The position numbers and the translations under genes are program-made. Of a DNA stretch of 64,000 nt, positions 7,363 through 49,298 are shown one piece after another (position 1 is the first letter of the stretch; each line of letters begins with the position of its first letter). Below the pieces are notes generated by a model. That model was not told where the DNA came from. It did no database searches and saw only the letters and a list, made by a program, of their open reading frames with translations. Origin of the DNA: Alphaproteobacteria bacterium (GTDB lineage: Bacteria; Pseudomonadota; Alphaproteobacteria; RF32; CAG-239); contig JAZRCM010000002.1 in the NCBI GenBank assembly GCA_045659785.1, positions 68,196-132,195 on the forward strand, in the 5' to 3' direction.

Positions 7363-7453
7363 TATATATAAATATCCCGTTATCTAAAAATTAATATTTG
7401 CAATATATAATTTGCTCGATTTATATAAATTAACAATATCTGGATGTTTTAAA

Positions 7454-22507: not shown

Positions 22508-22654
22508 ACTGAACTTTAGCTGATAGTATATATTTTTTTTTATAAATCAAGAATAAAAATCAAAAAAGTGGATTAAATTTTAAGCTTTTTCTTGCAAATT
22601 GACAATAAATATGTTTTTATCCGCCTAAAATGTTAATTTAATGAGTTGAAAAAT

Positions 22655-24241: not shown

Positions 24242-24248
24242 CCGCAAA

Positions 24249-24284
24249 AAACTCTCCTAAAAACATTTTAGGAGAGTTTTTGTT
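24249..24284 (+). terminator. rho-independent terminator of prfC
   Basis: aactctcctaaaa-cat-ttttaggagagtt followed by a T-run. Confidence 0.75.
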
Positions 24285-25033
24285 TCCGAAACTACTTTTT
24301 AGAATTAAAGTAGTCATTATATTCCTTTTGCACCTGCTATATTCCGAACTCCTCAAATGTTTTCTTGTTTTCCTTTTCAATATTCATAACATAACGTGCG
24401 TAATTTTCATTAATTGAAATAACTTCTTTCCTTTTTCTCCAAGCAGTAACTTGAGACATTAAATTAATAACTTCATAAGATGATATATATAGTGAAAGAA
24501 AATCAATCAAAACCTAGCTTTATTGAAAAATATTTAACCTGAAAAAAGTCAATATGAATATCATAAGCAAAAATTTAGAACTAGAAATAAAACAACAATA
24601 TACATAAAAAGTTGTGCATAAAATACAATCATAAATTGACTTTATTGTTTTTTTATTGTATAAGGTGTGAACAAAAGAAAACCGATGAAGTTATTTTTTA
24701 TTGAGCAAGGAGTTAAAAAGCGGCAACCTTTTGTGAACATATTTTTAACATAATATATTAAAACAAATGGACGAATGTCAACACGATTGTATATGTCAAA
24801 TATCCTCAAGGGTGTTGGTAAATATGTGTAGTAAGTTTTATAGAAATATATTAAATTGTTGTTTAGGACTAATATATGCGTTATTTTCAGTTGCATATTT
24901 TGTCGCTCTTTTTGATGAAAGATTACATAAAGAATGGGTTGTTGAAGAACCTTTTTTATATACAAAGTAAATTGCATTATGTTGGTTTTATTATAACTAA
25001 TATCCTTATATTTCTGATTTTAAGAGAAAAAAC

Positions 25034-25576
25034 ATGAAGAAAGCACTTAATTATATAGTTAAAATAAATGAAAATTTTGCATTTTTTTTAATTGTAGTTT
25101 TTAGTTTTGCATTTATATTAGCCCCTTTTAACCCTTTTACTTTGATTAGTAAACAAGATTTTATTGAAAAAAACTTATACGTAGGATTTTTTTATTCCGA
25201 GTGTATATTTTCAATCTTTGGAATTTTAGCTCTTGTACATTGTTTTGCTTATTCGCATAAATGGAATAGAAAAATATTAATAACTCCTAATATTATCGCT
25301 TTAATTTTGTTACAGTATTTGTTTTATAAATGTCCTTTATTTTTTGAAGCAATTGTGAGATATATTTATGTAGATATATGCCTACTTCTTTTAATTATTT
25401 TATCATTTATGAAAATCAAATACATAAGGAATGTTTCTTACCTAATGCTCTTAGTTATATCATTTATTTGTATTCAATATATTCCCGAACAAGAAATGAA
25501 ACACTCCATACTTTTATGTCAAGAAAACAATAATTGCGAAAAAATAATCAAAACCGTGAAAACGCATGAATATTAA
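25034..25576 (+). CDS. hypothetical polytopic membrane protein (180 aa), extremely AT-rich
   Basis: ORF with 5 hydrophobic segments. Composition is well below the backbone. No family recognised. Confidence 0.45.
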   Translation: MKKALNYIVKINENFAFFLIVVFSFAFILAPFNPFTLISKQDFIEKNLYVGFFYSECIFSIFGILALVHCFAYSHKWNRKILITPNIIALILLQYLFYKCPLFFEAIVRYIYVDICLLLLIILSFMKIKYIRNVSYLMLLVISFICIQYIPEQEMKHSILLCQENNNCEKIIKTVKTHEY

Positions 25577-25582
25577 ATAAAA

Positions 25583-27472
25583 TTATTTATTCCAAGGGCG
25601 GTGTCCGATATAATCTCTTACCGTTTTAATTTTGTTTCCGTAAACGGCAAATCCCTGTGTTTGTACATAATCCACATTAGGGATTTTTATTTTATCTTTA
25701 TCATCTGTTTCCTCTATATTTGATGAAGCATATTTTGATAACCAATTTTGTTTTATCCACTTATTTCCGCCTTTAAATGCCTGTAATTTTCCGTTCTCAT
25801 TTTTAACGGCGATAGTTTTTCCATCACTTGCAACCATTAAATCGGGAACTTGAACCGTCATTATACTCAAAGCTCCTGCAAAAATAGCTATCCAGCCGAA
25901 ATGACGCCATTTTTGTTGCCACAAACACAACCACAAACCTCCGAATGTAATCAGCAATAATCCCCACAAAGGAAAAGAATATAATTCTATCGTAGCATTC
26001 GGTAATAATGACACATATTCGGTCAACTTATTTAGTTGCTCTACTCCCAAACCGGCAAGTTTCAACGGAATCTTTGCCAATCCCAAAGGAATTGTAAGCA
26101 GAGCAATAAGAATTGCCGGCATAATTATTAAACCGATTATCGGACCGGCTATAAAATTAGTGATTGATGTATATAAAGAAACACGATTAAAATGATAAAT
26201 TGCATAAGGAAGTGTGGCTAAACTTGCGATTAAATCAGCCAAAACAATACCTATCATATAGACAATAACACCTCGCAAAATTTTTATCGATAACGTTTTA
26301 TTTTCTCCCGACAAAAAGCGCTCAACTTTTCCGCCGAAACGTTCATAAAAAGCAACTAAAGCTACCACCGCAGCAAAGGAAAGTTGAAAACTTATGTTTA
26401 CCAAAGCTTGCGGAGATATAATTAAGATTATTAGTGCGGCAATCGCTAAAATTCGCATCGAAATCGCTTGTCTTTCAAAAATCACCGCAAGCAAAACCAT
26501 AAATGTCATAATATATGCTCTTTGTGTCGGAACTTCTGCTCCCGACACAAGCAAATAAACTGTACTGACAACAAAGGCTAAAACAGCAGCAACTTTTTTA
26601 GAGTTATATCGCAAGGAAAGAGCCGGTATCAATGCCATAAAAAATCGCACAAAGAAAAACATTAACCCTGCCAACATACTCATGTGCAAACCGGAGATTG
26701 AAAGAAAATGAGCCAAACCGGAATCTCGATAATTTTCAATTTGTTCTTGTGTCATAAAATCTCGGTTACCGGCCAAAACTGCCGATATAATCGCAGCTTG
26801 TTCCGACGGCAAATGGGAAGATATCGTATCAGTCATCCTTTTTCGCCATTTATCAATCAATCTTTTGAAATATCCGAAATCTTTATGACAACCAATTTCA
26901 AAAACAGATGTAGGAACATATCCGCTTCCGTTAATACCATCAAAAAACAAACGTCTGTCAGGTTGATAACCTCCGACTTGATTAGCTTTCATTATAGGAG
27001 ATACTTCAGCAACCAATTCTACGCATTTTCCAACCTCAATCGGTTGATTTTTTCTGATAACGGTTAAACGATATTGTCCCATAATTTTATCATTATGAAA
27101 ATTTTCCATATTACCTAAAACAATTCTCGGTCTGCCTCGATAATTGGTATCTGCGGACATAATTTGCCCACGAATATATACTGTTCCTTCCGGAGGTGTA
27201 GGTAATTTTTTCTCTAAAGAAATTGTTTTAAGTTGAACATCGGCAAAACCGATAACGATGACACCGATTAAAAATATTATCTTTAACAAAAAAGGATAAA
27301 ATCGAAAAACATAAGCCAAAAATAAAAGAGCTTCAATGATTGTCAAAGTTATCCATTTTGACGGTTCAGTCGGCAAATAAAAATACACTCCTACTCCGAT
27401 AGCAAAAAGAACCGGAAGCCACAGGAACCATCTTTCTCTTTCTTTGTAAAAAATATCTATAAGTTTATTCAC
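25583..27472 (-). CDS. comEC: ComEC/Rec2 family DNA internalisation channel protein, without the C-terminal metallo-beta-lactamase domain
   Basis: 629 aa. N-terminal OB-like DUF4131 region and the polytopic competence domain (GLAHFLSISGLHMSMLAG). No HxHxDH motif in the tail. Confidence 0.8.
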   Translation of the reverse strand: MNKLIDIFYKERERWFLWLPVLFAIGVGVYFYLPTEPSKWITLTIIEALLFLAYVFRFYPFLLKIIFLIGVIVIGFADVQLKTISLEKKLPTPPEGTVYIRGQIMSADTNYRGRPRIVLGNMENFHNDKIMGQYRLTVIRKNQPIEVGKCVELVAEVSPIMKANQVGGYQPDRRLFFDGINGSGYVPTSVFEIGCHKDFGYFKRLIDKWRKRMTDTISSHLPSEQAAIISAVLAGNRDFMTQEQIENYRDSGLAHFLSISGLHMSMLAGLMFFFVRFFMALIPALSLRYNSKKVAAVLAFVVSTVYLLVSGAEVPTQRAYIMTFMVLLAVIFERQAISMRILAIAALIILIISPQALVNISFQLSFAAVVALVAFYERFGGKVERFLSGENKTLSIKILRGVIVYMIGIVLADLIASLATLPYAIYHFNRVSLYTSITNFIAGPIIGLIIMPAILIALLTIPLGLAKIPLKLAGLGVEQLNKLTEYVSLLPNATIELYSFPLWGLLLITFGGLWLCLWQQKWRHFGWIAIFAGALSIMTVQVPDLMVASDGKTIAVKNENGKLQAFKGGNKWIKQNWLSKYASSNIEETDDKDKIKIPNVDYVQTQGFAVYGNKIKTVRDYIGHRPWNK

Positions 27473-36535: not shown

Positions 36536-39500
36536 TTACCTCTCGTATTTTTCTTGAAGTTTTCTGGAGTGCTCTCTAAAGTCACGTCCGGCACCTCTTT
36601 CGCCTTCAACATGTTTTCCGCCTAACAGTGCAGCATTCATATCATATGTGCTTACTTTACTTCCCTCTTTTTGGTAGTGCCCGTCAAGTTTCGGATTGAG
36701 AGAAATATCACGAGAATGTTTATAAGCATCTCCTCCGGCAATTGTCATATCGGCATATTCGGTAAAGTGACTTAAGGTAATCGCATTAACATAGTTATCT
36801 CTGGTCAAATTACTTTGCATCAAACTTTGACGAACTTCACCGATAATCATTGCATGAGAACGAGTGTCTTTAGCTTTCCTAATTTCATAGTCTTTTTTCA
36901 CACGGTCAACATCTATGGTATCTCTATTTTTCATGTGAGGAAGATTTCTTTCAACAATCTCGTCAAGTTTAGCTCGACGATCAAGTAAAAATTGATTCAT
37001 ATCTTTATCCGGTGCAGCTACTTTTCGTTCTTCCTCAACACGAGCGCAATAGTTCAACCATTGTTGATTCTTGCCCTCTTCGGTAATAGGATCAATACCA
37101 TAGACAATCTTATATTCGTCTAACAGCATTTTTTCAACCGGATCAACAACAGGGATAACCGGATCAACGGGATCGATAATCGGATCAACAGGATCGATAA
37201 TCGGGTCAACAGGATCGATAATCGGATCAACAGGATCAACTTGTGGTTCTGCTTTTGCTTCTACTCTATCAGCTTTTGCACCGGGACGGAGTTTTTCTTT
37301 CAGTTTTTTAATCCAGCCAAATCCGAACATACCGCCGGCAACTTCCGGAGTATCATTAACCATATTAGGAGTTTTAATGACAGTAGCCTCCGTTCTAATA
37401 CCTGTATCTCCAGGATTAAAGGAATCCAAACCAGCTTTACCTACTTCCGGTGCAAGATTCGAATGTCCGTTTGCTTCCATAGCATGTTGTATGTTATCTA
37501 ACATCTTCATACCATCTGAAGTCAAATTTTCCCCATTAAGCAACGATTTATGCAATTCCAAATAATCTCCACCGGCAACCTCTCTTGGTGTCATTCCAGT
37601 ATATGGTCCTTTATCAATTTCATAGTCCATATACTTATGTTCTCGTACAAATGCCAAAAACTTACGCATTACCACTTCAGCATTACCCGTATCATCCTTC
37701 ATATTTACTTCTGATAAACGCCCATTTATTTGAGAAACCATGTGTTCTCGTTGTTCAGGCGTAAACCAATTTTGTTGAGTATAATTATCCGGATTACGAT
37801 ATGCAGGAATATCATGAGGGCCTTCTCCGGTATATTCATACATAGTATTGCCGTCATTTCTGGCTGTGACAGTCTTAATATGTTCGTCAGTATATGTTTT
37901 TACATCAGGACCTTTTTCCGTAACGAAACCTTCCTGATGTTGTGTCGGAGTGATGTCATATTCCATAGCATGGCTTCGTCCCCACAGACTTCCTCCTACT
38001 GCAGCCATTCCGTTTACGGCACCTAAAAAACCTGATACAAGGCGATTATGCCCTGAAATTCGATTGTCTTTATATACTTGTACCATTCTGGTTGCTGCAC
38101 CTAAGGACATAGAACCAACAACACAAGCGGTCGCCGCAGCAACGGCAGGACCTGCCATTTCAGGAGCATTAACACAACAAATTGCGGCAGAACCGATTGC
38201 TAGTGCCGAAGTGGCTAATTGGGCATGGAACATTTTGTCTTTCTTGAACTCTTTCCAACCATATTTTTTACCTTCTGCTTTTGCTTGTTTTTTCTTGCGG
38301 TGAATTTGCCATATTGCAACACCTGCCGAAATTGTAACAGCAGCCCCCAGAGCAACAGCGTTAGTAACGGCACCGACACCACCGGTACCGACAACATTGG
38401 CCAAAGTTCTACCTGCTACATACCCGATACCTAGTGTCACACCGGCCCCTAACAATGAACGTTTAATAGAACCTGATTTAACTTGTTTTACACTCGGACC
38501 TCTATTTTTAGCCTTTTTATCAAAATCTTTAATTTGAGCAAAAAGCTTAGCCTTGATAAATTGAGTATTGGCACGACCTAACTTACTGTCTAAACGATTA
38601 GCATAAACCTCAACTTGATTAACTTGTCTGTCAATAGCGGAAGAATAAGCCTCCGGAGAAATGCTCACCCCCGATTTCAGTTGTCGTTCAAAATCAGCAA
38701 ATTCTTGGTCTTTGTCTGAAGTAAACTTATTCGGATTTTCATAATGATTTCTGATTGCATCTTCATTATGAATTTCAAACAATTTGAAAGGCACTCTCTC
38801 TTTTAATTGTTCAACCATAAAGTCTTTTGTCAGCTTCTCTTTAGAACCGAGATTTTGCATCAAAACATCATTACCGGCCAATTTCAAAACTGTTTCAAGC
38901 TGACTTCCTTCTGCAACAACCATTCCCGGTTTCCATACATCACTCATACGTGCCGGATCATTTTCATCTTTTGTCGGATCAACGAATTGAGGTATCGGTT
39001 TACCTTCATTATCGGTAAATTTGAAGTTACTGACTGTTTCAAGAAGTTCCTTGCCTAAAGTTTCCTCATCAAACTTGATATTATTTAGAATTTTAGTTCC
39101 GTCATGAATCCTTTGAGCAAAATCAATAGCTGTATCTTTAGGATTTTCACCGTTAGGAATATTCCACATTTCATCAAACGGTTTAACTTTTTCATCCATT
39201 TTTTCGGTAGAAGCTTTTATTGACTCTATTCTGTCGTTATTTGCTTTAATTTCCGCCTCTATTTCGGCAATTCTTTCTGCATCTTTATTTTTATTGAGCC
39301 ATTTTTTCTCTTTTTCTAGTTTTTTGTTTGCTTCTTCAATATCTAACTGACGAACTCTAAACATGTGCATATAGCCATCATAAGCATCAGCAACATTGGT
39401 TATGTCTGTTAAATAGAAATTTTCATCATTAGCAAAATTGCTTTGTAATGAATCCATCTGTTCGCGAACAATATTGAGCTTACTTTCTAAATCCGCTTTT

Positions 39501-41410
39501 TCTTCTTCCTTAGCCGATTTCATACGTTCTTCTAAATTTTGATATGCATATACGGCTAACTCCGGTGTCAGCAAATCGGAATCTTCTGCATTTAAAAGTT
39601 TATCAACAACTCTGCTCTTATATTCTTTAGGCTTTTTAACTTTTGCTTCTGATTCTGCAACAAACATAAATGCCTCTTGAGCAGCGACTAAATCTTCTCC
39701 GAACAGTGCGGCTGAATGTTTGTCGGCATCTTCACGGCTGATAATTTCCATATCAACCATAGCATCTAACTGTTTTACGGCTAAACGTTGACTGTTTTCA
39801 AAGTTATTAGGACTTCTCAAACGAGCTCCTTGAGTATTTTGTTGCTCTCTTGTCTTTCCTTGTTCAATATCAGACAGTTCTTGCTGTTTTTCACCAATCG
39901 GTTGTTCATCTATCAACAACTCTTCGTCTTCACTAATTGTTCCTGATACATTTGTCGGCTCTTCTTTTTTTACACCTTCAGCAAGAGCAGCAGCCCCAAT
40001 TCCTGCCGCAGTAACACCGGCGGCAACAGCTAAACCTTTTTCGGCAAAAGCTTTTTTAACTCCGTTATTTGCGGTTCTCTCAAAGTCTTCATCTAATTTT
40101 TCTTTAGCTTTGCGTCTGTCTTCATCAGTTTTTAATGTCGGATTGTGCTCTATATATTCGTATAAAACACCCCATTGTTCTGCTGTTCTGTGTTTTCCGG
40201 CAACATTTGAACGAATATAACGATTATTTTCTTGAAGATAAGCTACTCGGTCTTTTTCTTCCGTTTGAACAGGAGTTTCTTGTTGTCCTCTTTCTTCAGC
40301 CGGTATATATGCAACTAAACCGGATTTTAACTTTCCATCTTCATCTAGGAGAATTTTTGCAGCGGCTTCATTATCCTTTATAACATGCGGGATATAATTA
40401 ATGGTTCTGTCTATATATTTGTCAACCGAACATTCATTTCTATCAATAGAAGTACTAATTTTTTTATTAAATTCTTCTACAGCTTGTTTTCTTTCTTCTT
40501 CTGTTTTAGCCGTAACAACTGAAGAAGTAAGTTCATCTATTGCCACATGTAAATCTTTTAAGTAATTATTCTGCGCTTTTACTTCTTTTTCTATTTTCTC
40601 AATTTTCTCATAAATACTGGCTTTTTCCTCAGTAACTTGCGGATTCAATTTTTCATAGGCCAAACGTTGACCGGCTAATTGTGCTTCGCTTGTTAAGTCA
40701 TATTTATTACCGCTTTCGTGACTTTGCAAATGACCTTGAGCATCAGCAACATACTCCTTTCCGAATTTGCTGATAAATTCGCCCATCGGAGCAATTGCAT
40801 CTGGGGTAACGCTGATACGACCTTCTCCATAGTCTTTGATGATTTTTGAACATAACTGAACATGTTCTTCAAAAAGTTGTCTGTGAATTTTTTCATAATT
40901 CGGATTATTGGCTTTAAGTATGTCACTATTCTCAACTTCTTCGGGCTTGAGCAAATAAATATCCATTTGTTTCATTAACAATTCGATGTCTTCTGCATTA
41001 TATTCCGTTTTTACATCGTCCATCGATTTGGTTTCTACACCTTTCATCATTGAGGTAACTCGGTTGGCAATTTCTTCATGAGAAGAATTTTCCGCCGTTG
41101 TATGGTCCGTATATACGGTTGTACCTATTGTGTCGTTGAACTTTTCAAGAACTTGTTTCTTTTCGTCTTCGGTAGAAGCATTTTCTAAACCTTTCTTCAA
41201 CTCATCGATAGCTTCTTTAAGCTTTACATCTTCATCTTGCTTAGATGACTTTTCTTTCTTAAGCTCATAAACTTTAGCTAAAATCTCATCTTTTTTAGCT
41301 TCGCTGATACCGGAGGTTTGATCCAAGTCATATCCGCTGTTAAGCAACAACCCCAAATCCTCATTAGAAATCCCTAAATCTGTAAGAGAATAAGTTTTTA
41401 CATCAGCCAT
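36536..41410 (-). CDS. giant paralogous-family protein (1624 aa) with glycine-zipper hydrophobic module
   Basis: Uninterrupted ORF, GAAAGG SD. N-terminal ~460 aa are homologous to the 805-aa protein at 46836. Gly/Ala-rich TM cluster at about aa 985-1145. DPVDPII x4 repeat near the C-terminus. No signal peptide. Confidence 0.85.
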   Translation of the reverse strand: MADVKTYSLTDLGISNEDLGLLLNSGYDLDQTSGISEAKKDEILAKVYELKKEKSSKQDEDVKLKEAIDELKKGLENASTEDEKKQVLEKFNDTIGTTVYTDHTTAENSSHEEIANRVTSMMKGVETKSMDDVKTEYNAEDIELLMKQMDIYLLKPEEVENSDILKANNPNYEKIHRQLFEEHVQLCSKIIKDYGEGRISVTPDAIAPMGEFISKFGKEYVADAQGHLQSHESGNKYDLTSEAQLAGQRLAYEKLNPQVTEEKASIYEKIEKIEKEVKAQNNYLKDLHVAIDELTSSVVTAKTEEERKQAVEEFNKKISTSIDRNECSVDKYIDRTINYIPHVIKDNEAAAKILLDEDGKLKSGLVAYIPAEERGQQETPVQTEEKDRVAYLQENNRYIRSNVAGKHRTAEQWGVLYEYIEHNPTLKTDEDRRKAKEKLDEDFERTANNGVKKAFAEKGLAVAAGVTAAGIGAAALAEGVKKEEPTNVSGTISEDEELLIDEQPIGEKQQELSDIEQGKTREQQNTQGARLRSPNNFENSQRLAVKQLDAMVDMEIISREDADKHSAALFGEDLVAAQEAFMFVAESEAKVKKPKEYKSRVVDKLLNAEDSDLLTPELAVYAYQNLEERMKSAKEEEKADLESKLNIVREQMDSLQSNFANDENFYLTDITNVADAYDGYMHMFRVRQLDIEEANKKLEKEKKWLNKNKDAERIAEIEAEIKANNDRIESIKASTEKMDEKVKPFDEMWNIPNGENPKDTAIDFAQRIHDGTKILNNIKFDEETLGKELLETVSNFKFTDNEGKPIPQFVDPTKDENDPARMSDVWKPGMVVAEGSQLETVLKLAGNDVLMQNLGSKEKLTKDFMVEQLKERVPFKLFEIHNEDAIRNHYENPNKFTSDKDQEFADFERQLKSGVSISPEAYSSAIDRQVNQVEVYANRLDSKLGRANTQFIKAKLFAQIKDFDKKAKNRGPSVKQVKSGSIKRSLLGAGVTLGIGYVAGRTLANVVGTGGVGAVTNAVALGAAVTISAGVAIWQIHRKKKQAKAEGKKYGWKEFKKDKMFHAQLATSALAIGSAAICCVNAPEMAGPAVAAATACVVGSMSLGAATRMVQVYKDNRISGHNRLVSGFLGAVNGMAAVGGSLWGRSHAMEYDITPTQHQEGFVTEKGPDVKTYTDEHIKTVTARNDGNTMYEYTGEGPHDIPAYRNPDNYTQQNWFTPEQREHMVSQINGRLSEVNMKDDTGNAEVVMRKFLAFVREHKYMDYEIDKGPYTGMTPREVAGGDYLELHKSLLNGENLTSDGMKMLDNIQHAMEANGHSNLAPEVGKAGLDSFNPGDTGIRTEATVIKTPNMVNDTPEVAGGMFGFGWIKKLKEKLRPGAKADRVEAKAEPQVDPVDPIIDPVDPIIDPVDPIIDPVDPVIPVVDPVEKMLLDEYKIVYGIDPITEEGKNQQWLNYCARVEEERKVAAPDKDMNQFLLDRRAKLDEIVERNLPHMKNRDTIDVDRVKKDYEIRKAKDTRSHAMIIGEVRQSLMQSNLTRDNYVNAITLSHFTEYADMTIAGGDAYKHSRDISLNPKLDGHYQKEGSKVSTYDMNAALLGGKHVEGERGAGRDFREHSRKLQEKYER
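37139..37240 (-). repeat. 21-bp coding tandem repeat (about 4.8 units)
   Basis: Units ggatcaac(a/g)ggatcgataatc at 37161, 37182 and 37203, a partial unit at 37224, and a degenerate unit at 37139. Encodes PVDPII-DPVDPII-DPVDPII-DPVDPV. Confidence 0.9.
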
Positions 41411-41545
41411 AACAACAACCTTTCAATAATAAAATTAGCCAATTATTTGCATATTAGCACATTTTTTTCAAAAACAAAAGCTTTTTTGTCTATTCTATGT
41501 TAAAGTTATGTTACAAAAAAGACACCTTTTCGGTGTCTTTATAAA

Positions 41546-42445
41546 TCAGTCGGTTATAATCCTTTGCCCCTTTTTAGCGGAAACGATAACTTTTTTTATT
41601 TCCATTTTATTCAGTTGTCGATATTCATCCAACGCAGCAGTCACAACCGCACCGAATAAAACCACCGCCCAAGATAAATACGTCCAAATGAGGAATATGG
41701 GAATAATCGCCAAAGCACCGTAAAGTGTGGAATATGTAGTGTTTGACATTACAAATGAACCAAATCCCATTCTTAAAAATCCGAACAAGATTACGGCAAC
41801 AACAGAACCGCAAAAAGCATTTAATATCGAAACTTTCTTATTCGGTACCAAAACATATACCAGCATCAATGTTGCAATAGTAATAAGCGGAGGAATAAAA
41901 TAGCCGATTACAAATTGAGAAGCTTCGCCGTCAACATCTACAAATTTTTTGAGAGTGTACAAATATCCACGCATGGAAAATGCCGTACCTAAAAGAAGCG
42001 GTCCCAATGTTATTACCGTCCAATAAAGTGTAACTTTAGTAGCAATCGGACGAGGCTGTGTCACCTTAAATATATAATTAAAACTGTCTTCAATAGTCGA
42101 TAACAACAAAATCGCCGTAACAGCAATACCACTAACTCCCATTGTACCGAGTTGACCGGAGTTTTTAACAATAACTTCAAGATATTGCCTGATTTCTTCT
42201 TCAAATGAAGGTGTTAAATTTTTAAACAGAAAATCAGCCAGCTGTGTTCTTACCGGATCAAAAACGGGAAAGGCGGAGAAAATGGCAATACCTATTGCTA
42301 ACAACGGAACAATGGCGATAAGTGATGTATATGCCAAGGAAGAGGCAACTCTGAAAACCGCATCAGCCTTTGCTCTTTTGGTTAAGAAAAACACAAAATC
42401 AGAAAAAAGCTTTACTTTCTTCGATATAAGGTTTTTAAACTCCAT
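41546..42445 (-). CDS. YihY/BrkB family membrane protein
   Basis: 299 aa from ATG 42445 (GAGGTG SD). RVASSLAYTSLIAIVPLLAI and 6 TM helices are typical of the YihY/virulence factor BrkB family. Hairpin terminator at 41515-41545. Confidence 0.8.
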   Translation of the reverse strand: MEFKNLISKKVKLFSDFVFFLTKRAKADAVFRVASSLAYTSLIAIVPLLAIGIAIFSAFPVFDPVRTQLADFLFKNLTPSFEEEIRQYLEVIVKNSGQLGTMGVSGIAVTAILLLSTIEDSFNYIFKVTQPRPIATKVTLYWTVITLGPLLLGTAFSMRGYLYTLKKFVDVDGEASQFVIGYFIPPLITIATLMLVYVLVPNKKVSILNAFCGSVVAVILFGFLRMGFGSFVMSNTTYSTLYGALAIIPIFLIWTYLSWAVVLFGAVVTAALDEYRQLNKMEIKKVIVSAKKGQRIITD

Positions 42446-42553
42446 AATCCACCTCAAATAAAAAAACAGTTTACAAAAAAAATTAAATCCTATAAATATT
42501 CAATCAAGTTCACTTAATATAATAGTTTAATAATAAAAGCAAAGGAAAAATAA

Positions 42554-43384
42554 ATGATTAGTAACCAACTGTTGATGAGTGGGAAAAAAGGACTTATTAT
42601 GGGCTTGGCCAATGACAAGTCTATTGCTTGGGGGATTGCTCAAGCTTTGAATGCTCAAGGTGCTCAAATCGCAATTTCATATCAAAATGAAACTTTGCAA
42701 AAAAGAGTTGAACCTTTAGCTGCTCAACTTGACCAAGAACCATTGTTGATTAAGTGCGATGTTTCCGACTCTGCAAGTGTTGAAGCTTGTTTCAAAGAAC
42801 TTGGCGAAAAATGGGGAAAAATCGATTTTGTTGTTCATGCCATCGGTTTTTCTGACAAAAACGAGTTGAGAGGTCGCACTATCGATACATCTTTGGCAAA
42901 TTTCACTAATACAATGCACATTTCTTGCTATTCGTTTTTAGAAGCTTGTCGTTGTGCATCTCCGATTATGAACGAGAACGGCTCTATCTTAACCCTTTCA
43001 TATTTAGGTGGAGAACGCGTATTGCCTAATTATAATATTATGGGTGTTGCAAAAGCTGCATTAGAGGCCTCTGTTCGTGCCGCAGCCGTAGATATGGGAG
43101 CTCAAGCTGTCAGAGTTAATGCTATTTCTGCAGGTCCGATTAAAACTTTGGCTGCTTCAGGTATCGGTGATTTCCGCAAAATTTTGCACTGGAACGAACT
43201 TAATGCTCCTTTGCGTCGTAACATCACTCAAGATGAAGTCGGTGGTATGGCATTAGCTTTGTTGTCAGGATTAGGTTCCGCAGTCAGCGGTGAAGTACTT
43301 CACGTTGATGCCGGATACCATATTGTCGGTATGATTAATCTTGATAATGCTCAAGAATGTGGAAAAATGCTCATCGAAGGCTAA
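42554..43384 (+). CDS. fabI: enoyl-[acyl-carrier-protein] reductase (NADH) FabI
   Basis: 276 aa. GKKGLIMGLANDKSIAWGIA, SYLGGERVLPNYNIMGVAKAALE (Tyr-x6-Lys) typical of FabI. Confidence 0.9.
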   Translation: MISNQLLMSGKKGLIMGLANDKSIAWGIAQALNAQGAQIAISYQNETLQKRVEPLAAQLDQEPLLIKCDVSDSASVEACFKELGEKWGKIDFVVHAIGFSDKNELRGRTIDTSLANFTNTMHISCYSFLEACRCASPIMNENGSILTLSYLGGERVLPNYNIMGVAKAALEASVRAAAVDMGAQAVRVNAISAGPIKTLAASGIGDFRKILHWNELNAPLRRNITQDEVGGMALALLSGLGSAVSGEVLHVDAGYHIVGMINLDNAQECGKMLIEG

Positions 43385-43473
43385 AACATACTTGATTTTA
43401 AAGCAGATAACCTTATTATGAGCCGTTGAAAAAACTCAATGGCTCTGTTTTTTTGAAAAAAGGAAATTTAATA

Positions 43474-43761
43474 ATGGCGATAGATACACAAACAGTAATA
43501 AAAATAGCTTCGCTGTCGCGTCTTAAGATAGATGAAGACAAAGTAGAAGCCACAAAAGATGAATTTAATAAAATTATAAATTGGGTGGAACAACTCAGCG
43601 AAGTTGATACTGACGGCGTAGAGCCGATGTTTGCCGTAAATGATACTCAACTTGCATGTCGTGAAGATGTGGTAGTTGAGGGAAATCAAGCCGATAAAAT
43701 TTTGAAAAATGCACCGATAGCAGAATATGATTATTTTGTTGTCCCTAAGGTTGTGGAGTAA
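43474..43761 (+). CDS. gatC: Asp/Glu-tRNA amidotransferase subunit C
   Basis: 95 aa from ATG 43474 (AAAGGA SD). [15 protein letters not shown]...[18 protein letters not shown] is the typical GatC pattern. Confidence 0.85.
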
Positions 43762-43766
43762 GAAAA

Positions 43767-45224
43767 ATGGCTGATATTACAAAATTAACTATCGCTCAAA
43801 CTTTAGATTGTTTGAAAAATAAAGAATTTACTTCTACCGAATTAACTCAGGCTTATATTAAGTCAATGGAAGATAATCGTGACTTAAATGCCTATGTTTT
43901 GGAAACACCGGAAACTGCATTGCAACAAGCAAAAATATCTGATGCAAAATATGCTGACGGAACAAATCGCACATTAGAAGGTATTCCTCTGGGTATCAAA
44001 GATTTATTTTGCACTAAAGACATCAGAACAACAGCTTGTTCTCACATGTTAGACAGTTTTGTACCGCAGTACGAATCTACCGTAACAAGCAAACTTTTTA
44101 ATGATGGTGCAGTTTGTTTAGGCAAGCTCAATATGGATGAGTTTGCTATGGGCGGAAGCAATGAAAACAGCTATTTCGGTCCGGTTATCAATCCGTGGCA
44201 CAGAGAAAGAAAGCTTGTTGCCGGAGGTTCTTCCGGTGGTTCTGCTGCGGCTGTATCTGCAAATATTTGTGCAGCTGCAACCGGAACTGATACCGGAGGT
44301 TCTATTCGTCAACCTGCCGCTTTTTGCGGTGTTACCGGTATAAAGCCGACTTATGGTCGTTGTTCTCGTTACGGAATTATGGCCTTTGCATCTTCCTTGG
44401 ACCAAGCAGGTCCTATTGCTAAAGATGTTCGAGATTGTGCCATTTTGTTAAAATCTATGGCCGGATACGATGCAAAAGATTCTACTTCCGTAAATATTTC
44501 CGTTCCGGATTTTGAAAAAGTTTTAGGAAATAGTGTAAAAGGATTGAAAATCGGTATTCCTGCCGAATATCGTCCTCAGGGCTTAAATGAGGAAATGGCT
44601 ACATATTGGGATAAAGGTATAGAAATATTAAGACAAGCCGGTGCGGAAATTGTAAACATTTCATTACCTCACACAAAATATGCTTTGGCCGCATACTATA
44701 TTATTGCACCGGCAGAAGCATCTTCAAACTTATCTCGCTATGATGGTTTGCGATATGGCTTGCGTGTAAACGGCAACAGCATTGATGATATGTATACAAA
44801 TAGCCGTACTTCAGGCTTCGGAAAAGAAGTAAAACGTCGTATTATGGTCGGAACTTACGTTCTTTCTGCCGGTTATTATGATGCATACTATATTAAAGCT
44901 CAAAAAGTTCGTCGCCTGATTAAAAATGACTTTAACAATGCTTTTGAAAAATGTGATGTAATCTTAACACCGACATCTCCGGTTACAGCATTCCCTATTG
45001 GCGATAAATCCATGCAAGAAAATCCGATAAATATGTGGCTTAACGACGTATTTACCGTTTCGGTAAACTTGGCCGGGCTTCCGGGAATGAGCTTGCCCGT
45101 AGGATTGTCAAAAGACGGTTTACCTATGGGATTACAATTAATCGGAAAATCTTTTGACGAAGAAACAATCTTTAAAACAGCACATATATTAGAACAAGAA
45201 ACAAAATTTGAGAGGCTGAAATAA
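43767..45224 (+). CDS. gatA: Asp/Glu-tRNA amidotransferase subunit A
   Basis: 485 aa. Amidase signature [13 protein letters not shown]...[13 protein letters not shown]. Confidence 0.95.
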
Positions 45225-45225
45225 A

Positions 45226-46671
45226 ATGATATTAGAAGGAAAAACAGGAAATTGGGAAATTGTTTGCGGTTTGGAAATTCACTGCCAAATAATTTCAAAA
45301 TCTAAAATTTTTAGTTCTGCTTCAACAAATTTCGGCTGTGATGCAAATCAAAATGTATCTTTTGTTGATGTGGCTATGCCGGGAATGTTACCGACATTAA
45401 ATATGGAATGTGTGAACCAAGCGGTTAAAACCGGTTTGGGATTGCGTGCAAAAATCAATAAATATTCGGTATTCTCACGCAAAAACTACTTTTATGCGGA
45501 TTTACCTCAAGGATATCAAATTACCCAATTTGAATATCCTATTGTAGGCGAAGGTGTTGTATCTATTGATTTAGAAGACGGAAGCACAAAAGATATCAGA
45601 ATTGAACGTATGCACATCGAACAAGATACGGGAAAATCTTTGCACGATATGTCTCCGACAAAGAGCTTTATCGACTTCAACCGTGCAGGCGTAGGTTTGA
45701 TGGAAATTGTTACTCGTCCGGACTTTAGTTCTTCGGAAGAAGCCGGAGCATTTTTGAAAAAATTACGCTCTATTCTGCGCTATTTAGGAACTTGCGACGG
45801 CAATATGGACGAAGGTTCTATGCGTTGTGATGCCAGTGTGTCTGTTAGAAAAACAGGAGAGACAGTTTTTCGTCCTCGTGCCGAAATTAAAAACGTAAAC
45901 TCGGTGAAATTTGTAATGCAGGCTATTGATGCAGAAGCAAGACGGCAAATTGAAGTTTATGAAAACGGTGAAGAATTTGAACAGGAAACTCGTCAGTTTG
46001 ATCCGGTTAGCGGACAAACTAAATTTATGCGCAAAAAAGAATTTGCTCATGATTATCGTTATTTTCCGGAACCGGATTTACCACCGCTTGTCTTGAGTGA
46101 TGAATATATAGAAGGTATAAAAAATCAGCTTCCGGAATTGCCTGATGCTAAAAAAGCTCGCTTTATTGAAACAATGGGGCTCACAAAATATGATGCAATG
46201 GTAATTTGTGAAAACAAAGAAACTGCCGAATTTTTTGAAAAAGCTGCAAACGGTCATGACGGTAAAAAAGTTGCAAACTGGTTGATGGGCGATTTTTTTG
46301 CAATGTTGAATCGCAAAAATCTGACCATAGACAATTCTCCGGTATCTGCAGAAAACTTGGGCAAACTGGTTGATTTAATCGAAAAGAACATAATCTCGGG
46401 CAAAATTGCAAAAGACGTTTTTGAAATTATGTCAGAAACAGGGGATGATCCTGAAAAAATCGTTGAAGAAAAAGGTTTGAAACAAGTTACGGATACTTCT
46501 GCAATTGAAGCTATTGTCGATATGGTTATTGCAAATAATCCGGATAATGTTACCGCTTTTCGTAACGGCAAGACCAACCTTAAAGGCTGGTTTGTCGGTC
46601 AGGTTATAAAAGAATCGAAAGGCAAAGCTAATCCGCAAATCGTCAATGAGCTTTTAGCTAAAAAATTATAA
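45226..46671 (+). CDS. gatB: Asp/Glu-tRNA amidotransferase subunit B
   Basis: 481 aa. [30 protein letters not shown], and a C-terminal YqeY-like tail. 1-nt gap from gatA. Confidence 0.95.
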
Positions 46672-46758
46672 GCAAAGCAGCCGAAAGGCTGCTTTTTGTT
46701 TATTAAATATTCATAAATATCTGTTTAAATCCAACTTATGGATAAAAATTTACAAAAA

Positions 46759-46786
46759 TTGACAAAAACACTTTTCTTTTTAAAAT
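46759..46786 (+). promoter_or_regulatory. candidate sigma70-type promoter of the 805-aa paralogue
   Basis: TTGACA (46759-46764), 16 nt spacer, TAAAAT (46781-46786), about 50 nt upstream of the ATG. Confidence 0.4.
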
Positions 46787-46835
46787 TTTTGTTGTATAGT
46801 AACATAAATGAATAAAATTTTGAGGGAGATTTAAC

Positions 46836-49253
46836 ATGGCAAAAACATATACACTTAACGACCTTGGTGTTACAATTGATGACTTAATATTGTTGCAAAG
46901 AACAGGGTACGAGTTTGATGAAGATGAAGGTATAACAGAAGAAAAAAGAGAAGAAGTTTTAGCTCGAATTTATGAAGCTAAACAAGCTCAAAAATCAAAA
47001 GAAGCAAAACCTGTTGTTCATGATGTTCCTACTGCAACTCCCGAACAAGCAAAACAAGCAAGATATGATGCCGAACACGGTAAGGAAGTTAGCTTGCAAG
47101 ATATGGCTTCAGTTGTAAAATCTTCAACATTGGTAAGTAATCCGTTGCGTGACCAACTCCCTAACGTTATAAAATCCGCAGTAGAAAAAGACAGCTTGAC
47201 TGCCGAAGAAACTGCTGCTTTAGGTTATTTGCTTGATGAACTTAACGGAAAACATGTAGGGGATAAGAAAAATCCTCACTCTATCCATGAATATAATAAA
47301 CGTTTTGCCGATATGCCGGAATTGTTGGAACAGGCTGATAAAAAATTGAAAGAAGCTTCCGAAAATGTTACTCCCGCCGCAGAAAAAACATATACAAAAG
47401 AAGAAATTGAAGAGTTGTTGACTGCCGGTGAAGTTTATCTTATGAAACCGACTGAAGCTTTTGGAAAAGAAGGCGAAAAAGAAAATGTTGCGGATGCGCA
47501 TAATGACGGATTTGCAGACCATGTAACAAAAATGTCTGCACTCATCAAAGATTATGGCGAAGGCAAAGTTGATGTTGCTCCCGATGCACTTTTAGGTATG
47601 GATAAACTTGTTGCATTATACGGAAAAGAATATGCAAGAGGAAAATTATTTAAAAATGATATGTCCTATGATGTAACACAAGATGCTGCAAATGCAGCAC
47701 AACGTGTAGCTTTTGAAAAGAAATTACACGGCATTAAAACTCCAACTCAACGTTGGGAAGAAGCTAGAAGAAGAAGTCAAGGCATTGAAAACCACGTTAA
47801 AGTTTTAGATGAAATAATTCCCGAATTAGCTGTATCTATTACTTCTGCAAAATCAGAAGATGAAAGGAAACAAGCTATTGAAGAATTTAATAAAAAAATT
47901 AGTATTTCTCTTGATGCAAACGACCTTCCCGCTGAAGTTTTTATGGAAAAAACAAAGGGATATATTGCTCATGAATTAAAAAATAATGAATATGCTGATG
48001 CAGCAAAAATTCTTCTTGATGACAATGGAAATTTAAAAGATGGTTTGATTACATATATCCCGGCTGAAGAAAGAAAACAACAAGCATCTCCTGTTCAAAA
48101 AGAAGAATACAGCAAAGAAGAAATTGCTGAAGCAATGAAGAAGAAACCGGCAGACAGAACTTTGCGTGATTGGATTATTATCAAACATGCTATTCAAAAT
48201 CATCCGACACAATCGGAAGGTCAAAAAGCTTATGCTATAAAGAGCCTTACCGACCAAGCTCGTACATACAAAATGACTGATCCGAAAAAGACAACTGATG
48301 AAGAGCTGAAAGATGCTGACGAATTTATGCAAGAATTCGGTTATGATTATGACAAAAAAGGACGTGCTTCAACTAACCCGATTGCTCGTAAATGGAAAGA
48401 TGCAATTGATAAACGCATAAAAGAACAAGAGCAAGATAGAGGTAGAGGCGGACCTACAATAATTCCTGTTGTTATTCCTCATGGTAATGAAGGCAATGAT
48501 AATCTGGTTGTTCCTTCTGATGATAAGGGGAATGAAAACATAACTCCTTCAGACGACAAGAAGAAAAAAGGACTCTTCGGATGGATTGGAGAAAAAGCTA
48601 AAATAGCATGGGATTGGACTAAACGAAATGCTAAAGAAGTAGCCCTTATCGGAACGGTTGCACTTTTAGGATTGTTAGGTACTAAATCTTGTGAAAACAG
48701 CGAAAAAGATGATGTTAAGAAGGATAATATAGAAAATACCATATCAATGCCGGAAACTACACTTCCTGAGGTGGTTGTAGAAGGGAAAGAAACTTATAAT
48801 AAAGATATGGCTCTTCAATATTGCAAACGCATGGGATTTCAAGAGAATATGTCTGAAGATGATGCTATTGCATCATATCTGATTAGTAGGGCAACTTACG
48901 CCACAGTAAAGGATAAATATGCTTCACATATGGGTATAGATGCACTTTCTATTGATGAACAAATGGCTGTATTAGCAACCGTGCGAGGTAACACTCCTAA
49001 AAATGCTCCGGTTATTGATGCTATATTGAATGCTCGTGAAGTTAGTATACCCCGTGTAGCAAAATTAAAATCCGAAACCGCAAAATTTGTTGTAAAACAA
49101 GAAAACGGAACTATTCAATATCGAAATCCGGAAGATTTCACAAAAGAAACCGGAACTCAAAGTATTGAAGTTAGTAAAGATAAGTTAGCACAACAGGTTG
49201 AAGCGGTAGGTTATGTTGCACAAATGCGAGGAGGCAACCAAGGTAACGGCTAA
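46836..49253 (+). CDS. paralogous-family protein (805 aa) with a single TM helix
   Basis: GAGGGAG SD. N-terminal ~460 aa are homologous to the 1624-aa protein (MAKTYTLNDLGV.., IKDYGEGKVDVAPDA, ERKQAIEEFNKKIS, AAKILLDDNGNLKDGLITYIPAEER). LFGWIGEK motif, then TM VALIGTVALLGLLGT (about 48636-48680). Confidence 0.85.
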   Translation: MAKTYTLNDLGVTIDDLILLQRTGYEFDEDEGITEEKREEVLARIYEAKQAQKSKEAKPVVHDVPTATPEQAKQARYDAEHGKEVSLQDMASVVKSSTLVSNPLRDQLPNVIKSAVEKDSLTAEETAALGYLLDELNGKHVGDKKNPHSIHEYNKRFADMPELLEQADKKLKEASENVTPAAEKTYTKEEIEELLTAGEVYLMKPTEAFGKEGEKENVADAHNDGFADHVTKMSALIKDYGEGKVDVAPDALLGMDKLVALYGKEYARGKLFKNDMSYDVTQDAANAAQRVAFEKKLHGIKTPTQRWEEARRRSQGIENHVKVLDEIIPELAVSITSAKSEDERKQAIEEFNKKISISLDANDLPAEVFMEKTKGYIAHELKNNEYADAAKILLDDNGNLKDGLITYIPAEERKQQASPVQKEEYSKEEIAEAMKKKPADRTLRDWIIIKHAIQNHPTQSEGQKAYAIKSLTDQARTYKMTDPKKTTDEELKDADEFMQEFGYDYDKKGRASTNPIARKWKDAIDKRIKEQEQDRGRGGPTIIPVVIPHGNEGNDNLVVPSDDKGNENITPSDDKKKKGLFGWIGEKAKIAWDWTKRNAKEVALIGTVALLGLLGTKSCENSEKDDVKKDNIENTISMPETTLPEVVVEGKETYNKDMALQYCKRMGFQENMSEDDAIASYLISRATYATVKDKYASHMGIDALSIDEQMAVLATVRGNTPKNAPVIDAILNAREVSIPRVAKLKSETAKFVVKQENGTIQYRNPEDFTKETGTQSIEVSKDKLAQQVEAVGYVAQMRGGNQGNG

Positions 49254-49267
49254 CCATAAACACAGAG

Positions 49268-49298
49268 AAAAGCGGGGAAAACTTTCCCCGCTTTTTTG
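49268..49298. terminator. bidirectional hairpin terminator
   Basis: agcgggga-aaactt-tccccgct with a flanking A-run and T-run, between convergent genes. Confidence 0.75.

Follow-up and report, generated by a model that had tools for sequence, protein, structure and literature searches.

The window analyzed here, a 64,000-nucleotide stretch of contig JAZRCM010000002.1 from an Alphaproteobacteria bacterium (36% G+C), contains two giant open reading frames (ORFs) on either side of a yihY-fabI-gatCAB housekeeping block, which we call LONG (36536-41410, minus strand, 1624 aa) and SHORT (46836-49253, plus strand, 805 aa). LONG and SHORT are genuine genes of uncharacterized families with an unusual mosaic history. 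They represent two old families for which it is partly shown that only a module of ~110 aa, module C, is shared between their wider memberships, and LONG in the clade of the window appears to be a rebuilt gene that has adopted its neighbor's promoter and N-terminal modules. This evolutionary picture is well supported by sequence comparison. With somewhat less than even confidence, we propose that the proteins are modular inner-membrane, envelope-spanning scaffolds of an uncultured gut alphaproteobacterial lineage, a function that we infer.

Shared modules and distribution of the two families

The first-pass annotation of this DNA had proposed that the two proteins share a collinear N-terminal region of about 460 aa followed by unrelated C-terminal regions. 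Both ORFs lie exactly where it had placed them, and all of the peptides it quoted are found in the translations. BLASTP with composition correction aligned LONG residues 5 to 425 with SHORT residues 3 to 458 (158/475 identical, 33%; 213 bits; E = 3e-61), and the two N-terminal regions are homologous. BLASTP gave no further significant alignment beyond this region, and the C-terminal parts are therefore unrelated. No third copy was found in the window by tblastn.

Alignments and hidden Markov models (HMMs) delimited five modules in the shared region: A (~50 aa), B (~120 aa), C (~110 aa), the 120-aa cassette D, and E (~100 aa, in two variants). Their order is A-B-C-D-E in SHORT and A, a partial D-like unit, C, D, E in LONG; a complete module B is present in SHORT, not in LONG. 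The two blocks that had looked most alike by eye (EERKQA.EEFNKKIS and AAKILLD...IPAEER) fall inside cassette D. The features of SHORT are listed below; relatives are cited by P and L numbers and alignments by A numbers.

46836..49253, plus strand: SHORT gene, 805 aa; 24 homologues; ratio of nonsynonymous to synonymous substitution rates (dN/dS) 0.05-0.40; AlphaFold2 (AF2) mean predicted local distance difference test score (pLDDT) 75.5
46836..46991, plus strand: module A, aa 1-52 (alignment A2, HMM)
47019..47375, plus strand: module B, aa 62-180 (HMM); also in the C-terminal extension of P0040
47388..47711, plus strand: module C, aa 185-292 (HMM, E = 5e-40); AF2 pLDDT mostly 80-92
47751..48104, plus strand: cassette D, aa 306-423; a 24-aa acidic linker instead in P0004-P0012, L001, L002, and L040
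48111..48437, plus strand: module E type 1, aa 426-534 (alignment A2, HMM)
48558..48704, plus strand: KKKKGLFGWI amphipathic stretch, hydrophobic segment aa 602-616 (15 residues), and Cys619
48768..49232, plus strand: C-terminal domain G, aa 645-799; predicted periplasmic; AF2 pLDDT ~82-92 mostly

The features of LONG are as follows.

36536..41410, minus strand: LONG gene, 1624 aa; orthologues 78-89% identity; dN/dS 0.07-0.30 versus L001/L002
41249..41404, minus strand: module A, aa 3-54 (HMM from SHORT-type sequences, E = 1e-25)
41081..41227, minus strand: partial cassette-like unit ASTEDEKKQVLEKFNDTIGTTV, aa 62-110, at the position of SHORT module B
40658..41005, minus strand: module C, aa 136-251 (HMM, E = 4e-41; alignment A3)
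40268..40636, minus strand: cassette D, aa 259-381, an in-frame insertion; missing in P0001-P0003, L001, and L002, present in L040
39950..40234, minus strand: module E type 2, aa 393-487 (HMM); ends in an Ala/Gly-rich hydrophobic stretch, aa 459-477
38486..39913, minus strand: charged helical body, aa 500-975; long helices; predicted cytoplasmic
37979..38470, minus strand: hydrophobic cluster of about five helices, aa 981-1144; two loops are rich in Lys/Arg (hydropathy and sequence; predicted topology)
37247..37960, minus strand: variable domain, aa 1151-1388, including MFGFGWIKKLKEKL (aa 1361-1374); dimorphic core aa ~1200-1310
37136..37237, minus strand: Pro-rich spacer (DPVDPII)n, a 21-bp tandem repeat (Tandem Repeats Finder, 37139-37237, 4.7 copies, 88% matches)
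36539..37135, minus strand: C-terminal domain, aa 1426-1624 (alignment A7), with matches in 20 GTDB species of gut or rumen Alphaproteobacteria

The partial unit of LONG (aa 63-117) matches the cassette D HMM with a conditional E of 1e-4, and its match to the module B HMM is weak. Module C is the core of the family: it is present in about 50 collected proteins and is paired among them with at least four unrelated C-terminal regions, including relatives of ~550 aa that consist of module C, a hydrophobic segment, and different C-terminal domains. Only fragments came from a word-based search with the module C profile (A3). Two such fragments, P0062 and P0063 (ENA contigs of 0.6-3.7 kb), are fused in frame to Firmicutes-type SpoIIID; we rejected these as real architectures and treated them as most likely assembly chimeras. 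A counterpart of SHORT module B lies in the extended C-terminus of P0040, a TrbL/VirB6-like protein (33% identity over 110 aa; HMM, E = 7e-25), and an apparent repetition of module A in P0060 was not significant (E = 0.04 among 62 sequences).

No known family accommodates these modules, in agreement with the first-pass annotation. With a match defined as a score at or above the curated cutoff of a family or as E <= 1e-3, LONG and SHORT gave a best E of 0.05-0.09 in Pfam, far under the cutoffs, a best score of 15.5 bits against a cutoff of 162 in NCBIfam, a best E of 0.065 in PHROGs, and no match in PADLOC. About 25 of their relatives were equally blank in the library scans. Profile searches of the PDB (A2, A3, A7, A8, and A9) gave no match at E < 0.01, a PDB search with LONG was also empty, and Foldseek with the whole SHORT model retrieved generic helical repeats only (best E of 0.03 in the PDB and 0.0055 in BFVD, TM-scores <=0.16). 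A tblastn search of plasmid and phage collections found no match. Neither protein has a signal peptide or a recognizable catalytic motif, as had been noted by eye: both N-termini are hydrophilic (MADVKTYSLTDLG and MAKTYTLNDLG), and the libraries are blank. For the C-terminal domain of the ~550-aa relatives, we considered and dropped a Cys-His peptidase reading (G.C[YF][RK]..K..F ... H.HGH), which is a motif only, Pfam and the PDB being blank; the genes next to these relatives (ihf/HU, MerR, DUF2157, and GDYXXLXY) gave no functional lead.

LONG and SHORT are confined to a gut-associated lineage of uncultured alphaproteobacteria. When 1.84 billion representative proteins were searched exhaustively with a profile, only 37 of them matched at E <= 1e-3. 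Scanning genomes with the C-terminal domain of either protein or with the ~550-aa family gave matches only in gut or rumen Alphaproteobacteria metagenome-assembled genomes (MAGs), one bin label aside. The samples of origin were human, Hadza, ruminant, and chicken; closest to the window are MAGs from the ruminant gut that carry the label "Alphaproteobacteria bacterium," and one matching genome is "Candidatus Scatocola," placed by NCBI in the Rhodospirillales. The deviating label belongs to a fabI-gatCAB-SHORT-proS contig (L031, CAVIWQ010000030.1) filed under a Bacteroidaceae bin, which is probably misbinned because its gene order is alphaproteobacterial. These hosts are widespread in humans, ruminants, and poultry yet almost unstudied, and two of the largest conserved proteins of their lineage comprise at least seven sequence modules without a detectable relative of known function among the 1.84 billion representatives.

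Origin of the locus and exchange of segments

The block between the two genes and their transcription signals are as follows.

41546..46671: housekeeping block, yihY (minus strand), fabI, gatC, gatA, and gatB (plus strand) (NCBIfam)
46762..46785, plus strand: SHORT promoter motif ACAAAAAnnCTTTTnTTTTTnAAA, overlapping TTGACA-16-TAAAAT (46759-46786)
41466..41489, minus strand: ACAAAAAnnCTTTTnTTTTTnAAA motif 5' of LONG, the same motif as at SHORT
46674..46695, plus strand: terminator-like hairpin in the gatB/SHORT gap
41515..41537, minus strand: terminator-like hairpin in the yihY/LONG gap (GACACC-GAAAA-GGTGTC, then a T run; read from the sequence)
36497..36530, minus strand: terminator-like hairpin past the LONG 3' end
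49268..49295, no strand assigned: two-way terminator-like hairpin past the SHORT 3' end

LONG and SHORT had been described as transcribed divergently, away from the block. They are indeed on opposite strands and point away from it, but the actual divergence point is the yihY/fabI gap, with LONG on the same strand as and downstream of yihY and SHORT on the same strand as and downstream of gatB. Terminator-like hairpins cut both genes off from these upstream neighbors, and each has its own promoter-like site and 3' terminator. The outer flanks are proS beyond LONG and apbC/hflKC beyond SHORT; proS and apbC are both convergent, each past a terminator. The motif ACAAAAAnnCTTTTnTTTTTnAAA spans the promoter and, in 623 kb of fetched loci, is confined to the regions upstream of SHORT-type genes and of the LONG genes of this clade.

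SHORT-type genes are found 3' of gatB in 8/8 genomes examined. The order in distant species is murC> <yihY fabI> gatCAB> SHORT> <proS, and the neighbor beyond SHORT in other species is either proS or a convergent 205-aa ORF. Twenty GTDB species, two of them MAGs of the clade of the window, carry LONG-type genes (1150-1570 aa). Outside this clade, 20 LONG-type loci were examined (18 found by the genome scan, 2 on metagenomic contigs); dnaJ lies upstream in 16 and a partner gene of 560-700 aa downstream in 12. Only in the clade of the window (the window, RGIG4207, RGIG9009, and strain L040) is LONG flanked by proS and yihY, and there the partner gene is missing; no second LONG-type locus was found in RGIG4207 or RGIG9009. 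The partner gene (L007 7821-9938, L008 6241-7950, and L011-L020), directly 3' of the dnaJ-locus LONG-types, is conserved, has no Pfam match and no relative in the window, and has a ~120-aa stretch in common with P0060 (aa 130-249; E = 1e-6).

From residue 512 on, LONG aligns with the dnaJ-locus LONG-types at 42% identity. Module C is present in these proteins, and modules A and E are undetectable even at E <= 10. Because A, E, and ACAAAAAnnCTTTTnTTTTTnAAA are missing from the other LONG-types, LONG appears to be a LONG-type body with a SHORT-type 5' end. In the graft scenario that we infer, LONG of this clade would have relocated from the dnaJ locus to a position beside the yihY-gatB block, with its orientation inverted, and its body would have gained the promoter motif and modules A and E of a SHORT-type gene. 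Three points weigh against this scenario. Module C itself leaves the graft unsettled, since in the LONG of this clade it is 41% identical to SHORT-types versus 38% to LONG-types (388/500 bootstraps); A, E, and the motif may instead have been lost in all other LONG-types; and the exact path of rearrangements from murC-yihY-...-SHORT-proS to the present order could not be traced.

Since module C is indecisive, ancestral presence with repeated loss stays a rival to the graft. It would start from a single ancient inverted duplication followed by C-terminal replacement, with A, E, and the motif ancestral and lost in the dnaJ-locus LONG-types. The nearly equal distance of module C from both families is consistent with this account, and the 33% N-terminal identity and well-diverged DNA argue for age. 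However, under this account each of the 20 outside LONG-type loci must have lost A, E, and the motif, and the account leaves unexplained both the position of LONG, in this clade only, beside the SHORT locus and proS, the ancestral downstream neighbor of SHORT, and the tracts of 75-85% nucleotide (nt) identity that differ among genomes. We consider it unlikely. The one old duplication of the first-pass annotation is too simple, as only module C is common to the wider families, A, E, and the promoter motif are SHORT-type, and the cassette is a later exchange.

Cassette D is the only tract of the window in which LONG and SHORT are still alike in DNA (261 bp, 74.7%); the cassette inverted repeat (40256-40378 / 47985-48107) reaches 79%. 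In 30-codon sliding windows, nt identity is 66-81% in this tract, with third-position agreement of 0.7-0.89, and 46-62% elsewhere. The two cassettes of the window are mutually closest (50% aa identity versus 21-40% to all others). The cassette is missing from all three sister-species LONG orthologues, from all close SHORT relatives, and from both genes of RGIG4207 and RGIG9009, and distant SHORT-types carry one (P0015, P0017, and P0021) or two (P0014). We rejected the idea that the two genes either both have or both lack the cassette, because L040 carries it in LONG only. In RGIG4207 (L001), the tract shared by LONG and SHORT is module E instead (212 bp at 84.9%), and RGIG9009 has no high-identity tract between its LONG and SHORT. 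Module E type 2, the variant of LONG, also occurs in SHORT alleles P0009, P0010, P0012, P0022, and L001, and all four pairings of E variant and membrane-segment variant are found among SHORT alleles. As judged from these alignments, LONG and SHORT copies and alleles apparently still swap segments by gene conversion and allelic recombination.

The same was seen between strains. The housekeeping block is 97.9% identical in nt sequence to that of L040, and the region as a whole is 98-100% identical save for sharply bounded divergent tracts.

37351-38400: 54-89% nt identity
39601-40011: 60-89% nt identity; overlaps the LONG helical body
41362-42111: 89-94% nt identity; 3' half of yihY and the LONG promoter region
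SHORT: cassette indel

The tract at 41362-42111 suggests that recombination reaches past the giant genes into the housekeeping block. There are two allele classes of LONG residues 1200 to 1310, with 51-53% identity between them: one comprises the window and P0002 and the other L040, P0001, and P0003, and the latter class is closer (63%) to a distant dnaJ-locus protein. The LONG body instead groups the window with L040 and P0001 at 99-100%, which is incongruent with these classes. With mosaic SHORT alleles, divergent tracts, and a dimorphic LONG domain, the locus is polymorphic and recombining, and the first-pass interpretation is supported to this extent. Such strain-level allelic dimorphism flags the parts of the proteins that face selective pressure.

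dN/dS was computed by segment against two sister species (L001 and L002), with dS alike for all genes (0.3-1.3 mostly). Values were 0.05-0.40 in SHORT and LONG segments versus 0.02-0.05 in neighboring genes. The highest values in SHORT were those of the linker with the hydrophobic segment, domain G, and module E versus L001, where the E variant differs; in LONG they were those of aa 1151-1395 (0.28-0.30). Therefore, LONG and SHORT are under purifying selection, much less constrained than their neighbors, and both are functional because dN/dS is well under 1. The least constrained parts are mostly those that the predicted topology places outside the cytoplasm, and the C-terminal domains are kept among orthologues within the clade (A7, 89-93%; G, about 70%). 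Decaying or spurious reading frames without function would be consistent with the lack of a domain match of any kind and with the long charged low-complexity stretches. This reading is almost certainly wrong: it is already contradicted by intact frames of 700-1600 codons in dozens of genomes, by the dN/dS values, by confident AF2 domains in SHORT, and by conserved promoter motifs and terminators.

Predicted membrane architecture and role

Kyte-Doolittle hydropathy identified one hydrophobic segment in SHORT in total, none of it N-terminal, and AF2 (32 sequences) modeled the protein with fair confidence as a succession of small domains, helical with short hairpins, and as disordered at aa 536-651, around this segment. 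The region after it forms a 185-aa helical domain. Domain G is mainly helical with a small hairpin, pLDDT drops near its C-terminal end, and no acidic residue is invariant in its alignment (A8), which gave no PDB match. In LONG, the hydrophobic cluster is internal, and there is no N-terminal hydrophobic segment; AF2 (aa 425-1624, 6 sequences) rendered the cluster as five helices at low confidence in a model that is unusable overall (pLDDT 39; 60-87 only at aa ~595-745). An FGWI motif beside hydrophobic segments had been reported for both proteins. This holds for SHORT, in which GLFGWI (aa 579-584) comes directly before the sole segment (aa 602-616), and not for LONG, in which MFGFGWI (aa 1361-1367) lies ~215 aa past the cluster, just ahead of the Pro-rich repeat. 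The KKKKGLFGWI/hydrophobic/Cys layout is repeated in the distant relatives P0029, P0032, P0034, P0042, P0045, P0052, and P0060, and Cys619 is invariant in alignment A1.

We propose that LONG and SHORT are inner-membrane scaffolds, and the mechanism outlined here is a hypothesis. Lys/Arg-rich stretches precede the SHORT segment (KKKK...KRNAK) and the first helix of LONG and fill the LONG loops HRKKKQAKAEGKKYGWKEFKKDK and KDNRISGHNR; by the positive-inside rule, both proteins are therefore predicted to be N-in, C-out. The acidic, all-alpha N-terminal modules of both proteins, and the ~480-aa helical body of LONG, would lie in the cytoplasm. SHORT would cross the membrane once (aa 602-616) and expose its 185-aa helical domain to the periplasm. 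LONG would cross about five times, exposing the variable domain, the TonB-like Pro-rich spacer, and the 200-aa C-terminal domain. This membrane architecture is also favored by the position of the Pro-rich repeat ahead of the C-terminal domain, by the copy of module B in the tail of P0040, and by the ~550-aa relatives, in which module C is joined to a hydrophobic segment and different C-terminal domains. Module C would dock onto a cytoplasmic partner, and the extracytoplasmic modules would contact envelope components and experience diversifying or balancing pressure, e.g., from phages or bacteriocins exploiting them.

Several points weigh against the scaffold reading. The topology is based on hydropathy and charge only, the SHORT stretch of ~15 residues is short for a membrane helix, and the fifth helix of LONG is weakly hydrophobic; if that helix does not span, the whole C-terminal third of LONG is cytoplasmic. 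GFGWIKKLKEKL in LONG resembles cytoplasmic amphipathic membrane-targeting helices, which would clash with a periplasmic site. Sequence and fold searches found no similarity to TonB, TolA, or scaffold domains, with the LONG model of no use for the latter. Strain-level dimorphism is also unusual for a plain housekeeping scaffold.

The dimorphism is central to a different proposal that we hold to be quite unlikely, in which LONG and SHORT form a population-level variable envelope locus and module C, as a cytoplasmic docking domain not seen before, would tie several unrelated extracytoplasmic modules to a single envelope machine specific to the lineage. The modules taken to be exposed, namely, LONG aa 1150-1390, whose two deeply divergent allele classes recur in more than one species, and the cassette that is present or absent, would be kept polymorphic by a phage or bacteriocin arms race or by kin recognition, and new combinations would arise by exchange between the inverted paralogues. 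In a bolder variant, the internal "KRNWKK - 15 hydrophobic residues - xxC-S" of SHORT would be a lipoprotein-like export and processing signal.

The sequence in question (48639-48692, SHORT aa 602-619) and its counterparts in relatives consist of KRN.KK, ~15 hydrophobic residues, then an invariant Cys-Ser 2-3 residues on, and a polar linker. It resembles a signal peptide placed 600 residues inside a protein, without a lipobox: [LVI][ASTVI][GAS]C does not precede the invariant Cys, which follows G-T-K-S in SHORT and A-K-S, M-R-G, or S-N in relatives. SHORT accordingly does not fit the signal of bacterial lipoproteins, the segment also being 600 residues in and not N-terminal.

The Pro-rich spacer of LONG varies in copy number and sequence in P0002, P0003, P0044, and P0046 and is of PKP/PEP type in P0003 and P0044. 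In UBA3773 (L024 4218-11145), an ORF that comes after a LONG-type gene and overlaps it carries more copies of the Pro-rich spacer plus C-terminal domain (four A7 HMM matches; about three full copies by eye). The arrangement is either a MAG frameshift or a beads-on-a-string domain extension.

If the envelope-spanning scaffold reading is true, LONG and SHORT are entry points to the envelope organization of this lineage and to its interactions with phages and bacteriocins. If it is wrong, they still provide well-delimited new domain families for annotation.

Elsewhere in the window, a 411-aa ORF (32766-34001, minus strand), 2.5 kb from the 3' end of LONG, matches Pfam ADPrib_exo_Tox (E = 8e-12); it adjoins a cold-shock gene in the window and in RGIG4207, and clpP/clpX-sized genes are found there instead in more distant relatives. 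A 1327-aa giant ORF (7412-11395, plus strand) has coiled-coil-type matches that are subthreshold or borderline (DUF948 and ATG17-like) and no relation to LONG or SHORT by BLAST. The tract 24001-26000 is AT rich (28.5% G+C) and includes an ~800-bp gap between prfC (22646-24241) and a 180-aa ORF, beside comEC. A replication origin near ~42 kb, at the minimum of cumulative GC skew, was rejected: DnaA-box-like sites are at chance (22 found versus 18.7 expected), and the minimum arises because skew tracks gene orientation.

Comparison with known systems

The first-pass annotation had likened the pair to polymorphic effector or surface-protein families, in which a shared N-terminal trafficking module and a membrane-insertion element would be joined to exchangeable C-terminal effectors delivered to other cells or to the surface. 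As in polymorphic toxins (Rhs, CDI, MafB, and LXG), relatives of LONG and SHORT combine a common N-terminus with unrelated C-termini, module C alone being joined to at least four such regions, and their alleles are recombinant mosaics with one dimorphic domain. Nonsynonymous change is 3-10 times faster than in neighboring genes, and the ADP-ribosyltransferase exoenzyme-type gene is 2.5 kb off. In contrast to these toxins, neither protein has a signal peptide, toxin domain, or known trafficking domain (PAAR, Rhs, LXG, TPS, MuF, WXG, etc.) in Pfam or NCBIfam, and there is no small immunity-like gene 3' of either ORF, where a terminator is followed by proS or apbC. Orthologues occupy fixed core-genome positions in many species under purifying selection, dN/dS being below 1 throughout, and the C-terminal domains are conserved among orthologues without conserved catalytic-type residues. 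The variable parts, namely, the cassette, module E, and LONG aa ~1150-1390, are internal and not a swapped C-terminal toxin tip, and the hydrophobic segments and charge distribution appear to fit inner-membrane anchoring. Membership in this class is very unlikely.

A second possibility is that LONG and SHORT are parts or substrates of a Rickettsiales (rvh)-style type IV secretion system (T4SS), with N-terminal modules corresponding to docking modules of extended VirB6 paralogues. A Pro-rich spacer like that of LONG is a feature of VirB10 and TonB. P0040 (1012 aa), whose extension matches SHORT module B, has a subthreshold match to TrbL/VirB6 (PF04610, E = 4.7e-4) and belongs to a run of four large tandem ORFs, in which one downstream ORF passes the TrbL threshold (27.8 versus 25.9 bits) and P0040 and a second downstream ORF have weaker matches. 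Arrays of 674- to 1154-aa VirB6 paralogues with divergent flanks (RvhB6a-e) have been described in Rickettsia (PMC2653234) and are comparable to this run. However, module B alone is common to P0040 and is missing from LONG, so that the would-be link to a T4SS hangs on this module; neither LONG nor SHORT matches TrbL/VirB6; no T4SS gene is present in the window or in related loci of the same clade; and the genes occupy fixed sites beside gatB or dnaJ, not T4SS operons. We give the T4SS reading a slim chance.

The run at the P0040 locus itself (L006 1543-11385; 42.5% G+C) consists of tandem ORFs of 1012, 435, 804, and 1010 aa, with TrbL/VirB6 matches in the 1012-, 435-, and 1010-aa ORFs. The 1010-aa ORF, which also matches Peptidase_M23, is the sole one above the Pfam TrbL threshold, and the run is reminiscent of the rickettsial rvhB6 arrays.

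The predicted layout of LONG and SHORT also resembles that of envelope proteins. Proteins of the PodJ, TipN, and FimV/HubP class, polar or envelope landmarks of Alphaproteobacteria, are large, evolve fast, and are specific to lineages; their cytoplasmic region is helical or coiled coil and is combined with one or more anchors and a periplasmic C-terminal domain, without enzymatic motifs. LONG and SHORT recall this layout but are not similar to these proteins in sequence, and no domain of the Sel1/TPR, LysM, or peptidoglycan-binding type was detected. Unlike TonB and TolA (and FtsN and RodZ), they have no TonB_C, TolA, or SPOR domain by sequence or fold, their predicted cytoplasmic part measures 460-980 aa where those proteins have a few residues, the predicted membrane helices of LONG number about five, and no exbBD genes are present in the window and no ExbBD or TolQR genes near either gene. 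The likeness to the TonB/TolA type is architectural only: a predicted cytoplasmic N-terminus, an inner-membrane anchor, a Pro-rich repeat-encoded spacer, and a compact C-terminal domain, in the periplasm-crossing kind of protein that is exploited by phages and bacteriocins.

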